Positions 2,242-3,139 of a stretch of DNA of 64,000 bases are shown piece by piece. Position 1 is the first letter of the stretch; every line of letters starts with the position of its first letter. A program made the position numbers and the translations under genes. Source of the DNA: a virus; the IMG/VR virus record IMGVR_UViG_3300045988_062257. One strand, written 5' to 3'. The notes under the pieces were generated by a model. That model did no database searches and was not told the origin of the DNA. It saw only the letters and a program-made list of their open reading frames with translations.

Positions 2242-2281
2242 CACCTGCGGGCGTGGTGGAATCGGTAGACACCTGGGACTT

Positions 2282-3070
2282 TGATGTATTCTATCCACGT
2301 AAAACATGGATACTACTATGTAATAATAGCAGAGAGTGCCTAAGAGGAAACTCTTAGAGTAGAGGCTGGCTAAAACGGCGAAGGCGAATACAGAACGCCG
2401 TGCTAAGTTTCTTTGGGCAGACTCATTTAAGTGGAATACACTATTTTCCATATATAATGAAAGGTGGTAGACTTAAATGAGAAAATATGATAAAGAATGG
2501 CTTCAAGAATTATGTTCTTCAAGTTATTCTTATGCGGAAGTTTTAATTAAAGCTGGTCGTAAGATTGGCGGAGGCGCGCAACAAACCTTAAAAAAGAAGA
2601 TTGCTGAGTATGGAATTGATGTTTCACACTTCACAGGGTAGAGATGGTATGATGCTCCGGGGAAAGAATGTAATTTGAAGGGGCAAGATAGAGAAAAATA
2701 TTCTCTGAACGAAGTTTTTGTGAAAGATAGTCCAGTTACTCAAAAGGTTCTTAGAGGTTATGTTGAAAGGCACAATATCTTAGAATATAAGTGTCAACAA
2801 TGCGGATGTGACGGTCATTGGCAAGATGGAATAATTGCCTTAGAAATTGACCATATAGATGGAGATAACACCAATAATGAAAAAACTAATCTCCGCTATT
2901 TATGTCCAAATTGTCATGCTTTAACAGAAACTTACCGAGGAAGAAATAAAGCCCTAAAGAATAAATGTGTAGAGAGTATACACCAGCTACCTAAGTCTGA
3001 ATAAGATATGGTAAAGACGTACTCCAGACTACAACACAGAAATGTGGCTATGGTGACATAGAGTAGTAAG
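2282..3070 (+). mobile_element. Group I intron in tRNA-Leu(UAA) carrying an HNH homing endonuclease ORF
   Basis: Interrupts the anticodon loop after U34. Contains the R-like element CAGACTACA near its 3' end and ends in G. Encodes the HNH ORF at 2477-3004. Confidence 0.6.
2477..3004 (+). CDS. HNH homing endonuclease (intron-encoded), one in-frame TAG read as sense
   Basis: RBS AAAGGTGG before the ATG. Motifs DHIDGDNTNN...LRYLCPNCHA (HNH). The in-frame TAG at 2639-2641 lies inside SHFTG*RW; the canonical motif in this endonuclease family is SHFTGQ. The ORF table splits this gene (second half listed as 2675-3004). Confidence 0.75.
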
Positions 3071-3139
3071 AAAATCCCATGAGGCAACCCCTCGTACGAG
3101 TTCGAGTCTCGTCGCCCGCACCAGCTAAAGACGCATACA

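Follow-up and report, generated by a model that had tools for sequence, protein, structure and literature searches.

A probable mobile group I intron in the tRNA-Leu(UAA) gene of a TAG-recoded phage

The DNA analyzed here, referred to as the window, is the whole 64,000-nucleotide stretch of the IMG/VR virus record IMGVR_UViG_3300045988_062257, a tRNA-rich region of a large phage. At positions 2247-3123 of the + strand, it very probably carries a functional phage tRNA-Leu(UAA) gene that is interrupted by a mobile group I intron of the tRNA (IC3-like) type, and this intron contains an open reading frame (ORF) for an HNH homing endonuclease. Its endonuclease, the occurrence of empty-site alleles and the variation within its family clearly point to a mobile intron. 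The case is notable for its phage tRNA host, its mobility, a large family undetected by standard tools, kinship with cyanobacterial introns, a pseudoknotted P5, and relatives in amber suppressor genes. Mobility is directly testable, as an endonuclease is carried, empty-site alleles exist in near-identical genomes, and relatives are available by the dozen.

The split tRNA gene and its intron

With introns allowed, ARAGORN called tRNA-Leu(taa) at 2247-3123 on the + strand, i(36,789), in both the sub-region and the whole window; the split gene was missed in the window by ARAGORN at default settings and by Rfam at gathering score. The 5' exon (2247-2281, 35 nt, + strand) comprises the acceptor strand GCGGGCG, the D arm, the anticodon-stem strand UGGGA and C32-U33-U34, and the 3' exon (3071-3123, 53 nt, + strand) comprises AAAA (with A35-A36), UCCCA, the variable arm, the T arm and CGCCCGC-A-CCA, in which CCA is encoded. 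When joined, at a junction reading ...GGGACUU|AAAAUCCCA, they form an 88-nt type II tRNA-Leu(UAA) with 7/7 pairs in the acceptor stem, an anticodon stem of 5 bp and a long variable arm of 16 nt, which ARAGORN accepted without reservation. An earlier note, made by a model from the sequence alone, had described the exons as matching each other exactly, and they do; its figure of 824 nt between them is correct as the distance from exon start to exon start but not as the length of the intron, which is 789 nt (2282-3070, + strand). The intron ends in a G, as that note had also observed. This omega-G3070 corresponds to a column (G207 of alignment A1, described below) that is invariant over 61 cores, and the limits of the intron are supported by ARAGORN, by empty-site alleles and by family membership.

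An uninterrupted tRNA-Leu gene is present in three syntenic IMG/VR contigs of 104-145 kb (L221, L222 and L223). Their sequences share 90-96% identity with the window flanks over 773 nt, without a gap through 2281|3071, and the compared tRNA stretch of L222 and L223 is identical to the joined exons of the window. The ARAGORN call and the empty-site alleles together confirm insertion between U34 and A35. The earlier note had placed the split there and had recognized the ancient cyanobacterial and plastid tRNA-Leu site, which agrees with the site given for tRNA-Leu in PMC13011429. The gapless alignment of the intron-less alleles at 2281|3071 indicates that the intron was inserted precisely and that close relatives differ in having it. 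Such precise presence or absence rules out a decaying pseudogene, and it is the pattern that homing, or precise loss, predicts.

The assignment of the insert to group I, also made in the earlier note, is supported by family evidence rather than by a direct match. Three compact family members, L136 (63.0 bits), L077 (61.5 bits) and L140 (54.3 bits), exceed the gathering score of 50 bits of the Rfam model Intron_gpI (RF00028), and each covers model positions 1-253. An ORF-less twin of the window intron, L033 (256 nt, with the same L1 hairpins and a near-identical core), gave a full-length alignment with the model at 25.5 bits (E=1.5e-4) in a targeted search, and L017 did so at 24.5 bits (E=3e-4). 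In these last two alignments, Rfam placed P3, P4, P6, the R element (GUGUAGAGAGUA), P8, the S element (AAGACGUACUCC) and a GAAA-capped P9 hairpin as they had been mapped by hand.

Covariation was assessed on alignment A1, which contains 61 distinct cores, including that of the window, aligned with MAFFT (which is blind to structure) after long P6 inserts had been trimmed to the base of the stem. The helix map of the window row (50 pairs) was projected onto A1, with 3' partners slid by 1-3 columns and 500 column shuffles as controls. Standard pairs occupied 93.8% of cells, versus 27-44% with slid partners and 81.3% in column shuffles, and both sides had changed at 33 of the 50 pairs; none of the 500 shuffles attained the observed value on any measure. 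The window sequence itself forms standard pairs at all 50 positions. Pairing was complete in P3 (100%, with compensatory changes at 5/5 pairs) and P4 (100%) and nearly so in P7 (99.5%, two compensatory), P8 (99.6% and 93%), P9 (98%), P9a (94%) and P9b (97.7%), with many compensatory changes in the P9 domain. The ORF-deleted core has a predicted minimum free energy (MFE) of -75.6 kcal/mol, versus -52.0 +/- 5.0 kcal/mol for shuffled sequences (z=-4.7).

Several points weigh against this reading. The covariance-model comparison suggested by the earlier note gave a divided result: relatives score and the core covaries, but the window itself had no match to Intron_gpI, either at the gathering score or, over 2200-3250, at E<=10, and its closest ORF-less relatives, at ~25 bits, reach half of the gathering score. 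P2 (74%) and P6 (82%, with little variation) pair less well in A1 than the other helices; the low figure for P2, in which both sides have changed at all 7 pairs, is attributed to register shifts introduced by MAFFT. The helix map was drawn partly from the same sequences, which inflates the agreement somewhat, although the gap to the slid controls is still very large. The IC3-like label is provisional, as it derives from sequence resemblance (the GAAA of P2, the P8 receptor and the short P1). ARAGORN (default, introns allowed, and -ps80) detected no tRNA(CUA) suppressor in the 64 kb of the window. Lastly, we infer self-splicing, the activity and target of the endonuclease, the timing of its expression and the tetraloop-receptor contacts from these features, and the indirect standing of splicing and cleavage counts on the same side.

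All parts of the intron described here are on the + strand. P1 consists of exon ACUU (2278-2281) paired with the internal guide sequence (IGS) GAGU (2334-2337), a helix of 4 bp in which U2281 and G2334 form a wobble pair at the 5' splice site. Exon and IGS covary, with CUU/GAG in tRNA-Leu(UAA) and tRNA-Ile(UAU) and UCU/GGA in tRNA(CUA); in L136, where insertion is at 33/34, the pair is ACU/GGU. Two extra L1 hairpins (2292-2312 and 2313-2332) are specific to the sub-clade of the window, and compensatory variants of the second were seen by eye among L012, L013 and the window. P2 (2340-2346/2351-2357) is capped by a GAAA tetraloop (2347-2350) and is supported by covariation and the Rfam alignment. 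The P3 strands are GCUGG (2365-2369) and CCAGC (2983-2987), and P4 (2375-2380/2396-2401) encloses a 15-nt segment containing GAAUACA (2386-2392). The 5' strands of P6 (2407-2409) and P6a (2411-2418) are followed by the ORF, which is inserted in the P6a loop, and the 3' strands (GCCCUAAAG ... AAU, 2951-2966) are supported by covariation. In P7, the 5' strand G[A]GAGUAU (2972, 2974-2979; the Rfam R element) has a bulged A2973 typical of the guanosine-binding helix, and the 3' strand GUACUCC (3019-3025; the Rfam S element) is preceded by J8/7 AAGAC. P8 (2988-3013) contains a putative 11-nt GAAA-tetraloop receptor, recognized by its motif CCUAAG (2990-2995)/UAUGG (3007-3011). The P9 domain (3028-3067) is a three-way junction in which the closing helix ACUAC (3028-3032)/GUAGU (3063-3067) carries hairpins P9a (3035-3046, GAAA loop) and P9b (3048-3061, GUGA loop), both supported by covariation.

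The helix assignment departs from the earlier note in one respect. The element CAGACUACA (3026-3034), which the note had called P7-like, is J7/9 together with the 5' strand of the P9 closing helix, where it pairs with GUAGU 3063-3067. Its pairing with GUAGU as P7 was rejected; the G-C guanosine-binding pair could not form. Family comparison gives the true P7 as GAGUA/UACUC, shifting to GACUA/UAGUC in relatives. No P10 pairing of IGS-flanking bases with the 3' exon was found in the window intron; in tRNA introns, the anticodon stem holds the exons together (Zaug 1993).

P5 takes two forms in the family. Members with a 16-nt segment between the P4 strands have a local P5 hairpin, while all members with a segment of 10-14 nt, including the window, have none. 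In this second class, nucleotides 4-10 of the segment pair with intron nucleotides +4 to +10 in a constant register. The window pair is UGUAUUC (2285-2291) with GAAUACA (2386-2392), and there are at least 13 distinct complementary sequence pairs among family loci (e.g., L001, L017, L060, L141 and L197), such as CUUAGC/GCUAAG, UCCUAGC/GCUAGGA and CCCUGAU/AUCAGGG. This covariation implies that the pseudoknot is a selected RNA structure. As read from these complementarities, it would link the P4-P6 domain to a strand 3 nt downstream of the 5' splice site and would represent a compact natural variant of the group I architecture. No earlier description of it was found in a search that covered the structural literature only in part.

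These elements suggest the following pathway. Once transcribed, the intron would fold with exon ACUU and IGS GAGU forming P1 and the U2281-G2334 wobble at the 5' splice site, and the GAAA loop of P2 would probably dock into the 11-nt receptor of P8. P3, P4, P6, P7 and P8 would form the core, with the P9 domain as a three-way junction and P5 as a pseudoknot between intron nucleotides +4 to +10 and the loop closed by P4, not as a local hairpin. Exogenous guanosine would attack after U2281; omega-G3070 would then enter the P7 site, and the exons, kept together by the anticodon stem, would be ligated to yield the 88-nt tRNA. The HNH product would be expected to cut intron-less tRNA-Leu alleles of co-infecting relatives, and repair would copy the intron in. 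This endonuclease could be made only once TAG suppression was active in the infected cell.

The endonuclease gene, the genetic code and competing explanations

The HNH ORF (2477-3004, + strand) has 175 sense codons, a TAG (Gln) at 2639-2641 and a terminal TAA at 3002-3004 in L8. Its identification as an HNH endonuclease in the earlier note was borne out by matches to Pfam PF01844 (HNH; residues 106-147, 23.0 bits versus a cut-off of 21.4) and to PHROG 10822, "HNH endonuclease" (E=2.5e-49), the latter covering residues 2-164 and thus spanning the TAG. The protein has >1000 homologs, the best 120 being mostly full length, while its relatives of solved structure are distant (McrA, E=0.0035; I-HmuI [1u3e], E=0.08). 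A Shine-Dalgarno-like sequence, AAAGGUGG, lies at 2460-2467 upstream of the start codon. The start AUG (2477-2479) is possibly sequestered in a stem (2421-2432/2471-2481, + strand; MFE -16.8 kcal/mol) that was predicted from the single sequence.

The sole in-frame stop codon is, as the earlier note had described, a TAG within an SHFTGQ motif, where it directly follows S-H-F-T-G. In an alignment test applied to the HNH gene only, the residue at this position is Gln in 116 of the 120 best homologs. Among sister alleles, the codon is CAG in L015 and L082, which have no TAG at all, and TAG in L053. The ratio of nonsynonymous to synonymous substitution rates (dN/dS) among the four alleles is 0.05-0.10 and is as low downstream of the TAG (~0.05-0.07, codons 56-157) as upstream. 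The last 18 codons (2951-3004), which overlap P6a', P6', P7, P3' and P8, have zero substitutions among the alleles, as expected of a stretch constrained as both RNA and protein.

In-frame TAG codons also occur elsewhere in the window. The lysin gene (34968-36389) has four, and the Phage_lysozyme2 profile matches over positions 1-139 of 140 across three of them. TAGs are likewise present in a DHH/RecJ-like gene (51978-53729), whose DHH domain runs across TAGs, in the NrdD gene (60982-63234), and in two GIY-YIG endonuclease ORFs on the + strand (29787-30506, with 3, and 43436-44398, with 13), where the GIY-YIG domain spans TAGs. The second of these ORFs has by far the highest TAG density in the window and, by inspection, the mobile endonuclease genes of the window look TAG-rich. 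TAGs inside several clearly real genes indicate that the phage uses TAG as Gln, and the TAG of the HNH gene is an ordinary Gln codon in the phage's code. The earlier note had concluded that the endonuclease depends on amber decoding: read-through is indeed required, but this is not special to the gene, as it follows the genome-wide use of TAG for Gln, and the idea of such dependence is already published. The TAG decoder is presumably encoded elsewhere in the genome or was undetected; TAG suppressors are detected in only 40% of TAG-recoded genomes (Borges et al., 10.1101/2021.08.26.457843).

Across the intron family, the same endonuclease types have no TAG, have 1-4 TAGs at Gln positions, or need TGA read-through; the intron HNH ORFs of L051, L120 and L151 are full length (172-192 aa) only with TGA as a sense codon. 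The intron and endonuclease family spans standard-code, TAG-recoded and apparently TGA-recoded phages, and the in-frame stop tracks the code of the host phage.

The TAG of the HNH gene might instead be an adaptive timing gate, which delays cleavage until a late suppressor appears, and not a neutral by-product of the code. This is possible, although the balance of evidence leans against it. A precedent exists in Agate phages, for which an intron endonuclease was among the gene families preferentially recoded and exactly such a delay to late infection was proposed (Borges et al., preprint 10.1101/2021.08.26.457843). The two cases share in-frame reassigned stops in an intron endonuclease of an alternatively coded phage, Agate being a gut phage, but in Agate TGA is the recoded codon (read as Trp), an early, protein-coding gene hosts the intron, and recoding is statistically enriched, whereas the window has a single TAG (Gln), a tRNA host gene and sister alleles without TAG. 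A gate would also fit the numbers of TAGs in the other endonuclease genes of the window (3 and 13) and in several endonuclease genes of the family (3-4), as well as the apparent sequestration of the start codon. It fits less well with only one TAG in 175 codons and with the CAG alleles of L015 and L082, which suggest that a gate is dispensable, and TAG is also found in genes that do not look late (DHH/RecJ-like and NrdD). A single window cannot support an enrichment test.

There is a small chance that the intron is a group I derivative that self-splices inefficiently and needs a protein cofactor (a host factor or maturase), with P5 and the periphery remodeled. Against the Rfam model, members of class B, the window among them, reach only ~25 bits; a pseudoknot stands in place of the local P5 hairpin; large L1 hairpins and a 530-nt ORF insert have to be accommodated; and group I introns that splice with the help of proteins are well known (CYT-18, as cited by Hausner 2014). 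All catalytic-core helices and joining regions are nevertheless conserved and covarying, the pseudoknot itself covaries, and the tetraloops and receptor motif typical of autonomously folding tRNA introns are present.

It is very improbable that the intron is real but its HNH gene is decaying, with the TAG as a true stop that leaves a 54-aa stub at a late stage of the homing cycle. Under the standard code, the ORF does break into pieces of 54 aa and 109 aa, the window lacks a detectable suppressor tRNA, and relatives without an ORF or with remnants exist (L033, L012 and L017). Decay is contradicted by purifying selection that is equally strong downstream of the TAG, by the CAG of close alleles and the Gln of most homologs, by the alignment of the PHROG profile through the TAG, and by the essential-looking window genes with TAGs inside Pfam domains. 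Least credible of all is that the tRNA is a dead pseudogene disrupted by a free-standing HNH element and never spliced: default tRNA finders and Rfam detect nothing at the locus, and the window has other homing-endonuclease genes (29787-30506, 43436-44398 and an HNH/endonuclease VII-like fragment at 3308-3475), but in its noncoding parts the insert has a group I core that is conserved and covaries, the exons match the intact tRNA of L222 and L223 throughout the stretch compared, the site of insertion is precisely U34/A35, a U-G wobble and an omega-G are present, and >90 independent loci keep this architecture.

Relatives of the intron in phages and bacteria

IMG/VR was scanned with the 3' junction and then with two core motifs, which gave ~150 motif-bearing loci. 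ARAGORN called a split tRNA around the motif at 95 of these, mostly tRNA-Leu(UAA); calls of "Phe gaa" and "Stop tta" arise in this same tRNA-Leu context, from ambiguous boundaries. Nine of the 17 matches to the 3' junction 17-mer were uninformative: seven (the L002-L006, L008, L009 and L014 group) were chance matches in unrelated sequence and were discarded, and the loci of L007 and L010 were truncated within the intron. A blastn search of deposited phages with the whole region and with the 3' core of the window returned HNH-gene similarity only, or nothing.

Family introns are 203-1087 nt long, and ORF-less phage relatives are 203-350 nt. Inserts are located in P6 (in most members), L1, J7/3, P8 or P9. 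Some of them encode nothing, and the others encode members of at least two HNH families or a LAGLIDADG-like protein. Such varied endonucleases and loops on one backbone are typical of repeated endonuclease invasion and loss. The earlier note had called this intron position rare in phages, which is true of the described literature (Hausner 2014) but not of metagenomic phages, given the 95 split-tRNA calls and two deposited genomes.

Family introns also occur in tRNAs that read CUCU|..|AAA, with anticodon CUA (L152, 2418-3163; L105, 6899-7331; and L218, 1348-1665), where they are at position 35/36 and have GGA as the IGS. The intron HNH ORF of L152 contains two in-frame TAGs, so that a suppressor would be needed to express the endonuclease of an intron that splits a suppressor gene. 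One of the two deposited genomes is L218, Lak-B1 (MK250020, ~412 kb), in which an unannotated split tRNA with parsed anticodon CUA has a 245-nt intron at 35/36 with no ORF; its insert shares the family core motifs GCAGAGACUAUAUAC... and AAUAGUCCAGACUACAA and the IGS GGA. The other, the 735-kb phage LR756501, contains an unannotated tRNA-Leu(UAA) with a 205-nt family intron. Rfam found nothing at E<=0.01 at either locus, although both carry family motifs. As standard tRNA and Rfam annotation misses such split genes, phage tRNA repertoires, including suppressors, are probably undercounted.

In bacterial metagenome-assembled genomes (MAGs), the 3' core motif was found at 54 loci in two groups. 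The first comprises tRNA-Arg(UCU) introns in Omnitrophota, Endomicrobiales and others, and the second comprises introns that split tRNA-Leu(UAA) at U34/A35 and come from Clostridia, one Gastranaerophilales MAG (L197) and one cyanobacterium of the Leptolyngbyaceae (L215). The window core is identical to that of L215, the single cyanobacterial example compared, at 122 of 207 aligned positions (58.9%) in collinear blocks, and it has 73.7% identity to the core of L197, which also has the P5 pseudoknot. Identity and collinearity of the cores place the window intron in the same sequence family as the cyanobacterial tRNA-Leu(UAA) intron. Multiple copies of the 3' core motif were also seen in single MAGs, with 10 in the Prevotellaceae bacterium UBA6858 on contigs of up to 207 kb (L164, L167, L169, L178, L186, L196, L206, L207, L210 and L213) and ~9 in a Bacteroidaceae MAG from the Hadza (a subset of L177-L214). 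ARAGORN called no split tRNA at the motif copies of either MAG; these could be mis-binned megaphage sequence or introns in non-tRNA genes.

Among old bacterial group I introns, that of tRNA-Leu(UAA) is the textbook case, and its horizontal movement has long been debated. The classic intron of Nostoc/Anabaena PCC 7120 (Xu et al. 1990 and Zaug et al. 1993, as cited in PMC3984707) was used as a splicing control in PMC13011429. The window intron shares with the classic cyanobacterial intron the host gene, the U34/A35 site and collinear core blocks, namely, the IGS GAG, P2 with GAAA, J3/4-P4 AAUUCGG, P4' AACGCCG, R GUGUAGAGAC/GUA, S GACAUAGUCC and the ending ...GUAAG|AAAAUCC. It differs in several respects: the classic cyanobacterial and plastid intron is ORF-less and ~200-300 nt long, whereas the window intron is 789 nt with an HNH ORF in P6a; the former is regarded as largely vertical, whereas the latter is polymorphic among close phage relatives; and the window intron has a P5 pseudoknot with the intron 5' end and two extra L1 hairpins and resides in a TAG-recoded phage of a Bacillota-type lineage.

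Other known introns resemble the window intron in part. As a compact anticodon-loop intron whose sequence shows a GAAA-capped P2, an 11-nt receptor motif in P8 (CCUAAG/UAUGG), a GAAA-capped P9 hairpin and a short P1 (3-4 bp), it is similar to the Azoarcus intron as generally described. The Azoarcus intron differs in its tRNA and insertion site, lacks an ORF, and has a simpler P9 and a local P5 hairpin. In the T4 td and nrdB introns and SPO1-type introns (I-TevI, I-TevII and I-HmuI), the endonuclease ORF is looped out from a peripheral helix (P6 in td and nrdB), and the start region of the ORF lies in RNA structure; I-HmuI is of the HNH class. These introns belong to subgroup IA2 and lie in protein-coding genes, whereas the host of the window intron is a tRNA gene and its type is that of bacterial tRNA introns.

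Despite many phage tRNA genes, all phage introns then known were in protein-coding genes (Hausner, Hafez and Edgell 2014). A literature search turned up no group I intron reported from a phage tRNA gene; subscription journals are poorly covered by it, and absence is not proof. Unclassified "enigmatic" introns were described in the tRNAs of Lak megaphages by Devoto et al. (2018 preprint, 10.1101/356790), according to whom there were no previous reports of such introns. Like the window intron, they interrupt tRNA genes of TAG-recoded phages, Lak being a gut phage, but Devoto et al. place them in other tRNAs (Phe, Gly, Thr and Tyr) than the tRNA-Leu of the window. A 2026 survey of bacterial tRNA introns, which did not include phages, found endonuclease-bearing ones to be very rare, and one of the very few is an HNH-encoding tRNA-Leu(UAA) intron in a Bacteroidota genome (PMC13011429). 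That intron, likened here by description only, has the same host tRNA and endonuclease class as the window intron but is located on a bacterial chromosome. The large family of phage tRNA introns is apparently undescribed.

A broader reading of the family, taken as a whole, is judged to have an even chance of being right, and four consequences would follow from it. First, the family would share stock with the "ancient, immobile" cyanobacterial and plastid intron, and phages would be a vector of its horizontal spread. Second, different homing endonucleases would have entered it on repeated occasions, at five different loops. Third, it would have jumped into other tRNAs, including the amber-suppressor tRNA(CUA) of TAG-recoded phages such as Lak-B; the "enigmatic" Lak tRNA introns would thereby be explained, and the code switch itself would depend on ribozyme splicing. 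Fourth, one clade would have swapped the P5 hairpin for a pseudoknot, by which the 5' splice site is tethered to the P4-P6 domain.

The host phage and neighboring features

A blastn search of deposited phages found no close relative of the window phage. Its YorL-type PolIII-alpha (56036-59929) has ~40% identity to those of Enterococcus phages EF1 and VRE9 and of Bacillus SPbeta, and its lysin carries an SLH domain. The phAss-1 paper compared Enterococcus phage EF1 with TAG-recoded human-gut "Phassvirus" genomes predicted to infect Clostridia.

Directly 3' of tRNA-Leu lies a candidate structured RNA (3128-3241, + strand), in which a closing stem of 9 bp (AAGACGCAU/AUGCGUCUU) is accompanied by one hairpin resembling a T arm (AUCGG-UUCGAGU-CCGAU) and another resembling a D arm (MFE z=-4.1). 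It aligns over its full length with the Rfam YrlA (Y RNA-like) model at 29 bits (E=6e-4 to 6e-3), far below the gathering score of 69, and is conserved in the intron-less L221-L223 within the 773-nt aligned block. A 512-aa protein encoded at 9732-11267 (+ strand) matches PHROG 850, "RNA-binding protein" (E=4e-129), and was suspected to be a Ro60/TROVE partner of the YrlA-like RNA, which could not be confirmed; Pfam gives only DUF2828 and DUF7788. Downstream of this RNA, a short ORF (3308-3475, + strand; 56 aa tested) matches HNH and endonuclease VII PHROGs (E ~1e-9 to 1e-10) and may be a free-standing or fragmentary nuclease gene.

Other tRNA genes of the window and of related contigs are also unusual. 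A second split tRNA (1670-1793, + strand) was called by ARAGORN with introns allowed as tRNA-Pro(agg), i(32,50), and 1670-1790 matches the Rfam tRNA model over its full length at 48.6 bits, only in E-value mode. The ~55 nt between its anticodon-stem strands CGUGU and ACACG are too short for a group I intron and resemble the short "enigmatic" Lak tRNA inserts. Three contigs that also carry a split tRNA-Leu have a tRNA-Thr(tgt) with a 68-nt insert on the - strand, called by ARAGORN (L001, 714-856; L007, 2967-3109; and L011, 3145-3287); the tRNA type is the same as, and the insert similar to, the Lak tRNA-Thr(TGT) intron (Devoto et al.). The tRNA at 4166-4239 (+ strand; Rfam, 36.2 bits) has an 8-nt anticodon loop, GUUAAAAG, which ARAGORN reads as a 4-base anticodon "taaa" without settling on one amino acid (Leu|Phe), and the sequence at 363-432 (+ strand) is called by ARAGORN as tRNA-Cys with the unusual anticodon ACA and matches the Rfam tRNA model in part (48.8 bits, model positions 4-67).

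Structured RNAs also neighbor the tRNA genes of related phages. A RAGATH-33 RNA (126.8 bits) lies directly downstream of the split tRNA-Leu in L012 (1029-1157), and the neighbors of tRNA arrays in L041 (3240-3847), L055 (3362-3925) and L101 (6451-6796) are ROOL RNA (341 and 318 bits) and tmRNA (81.6 bits).

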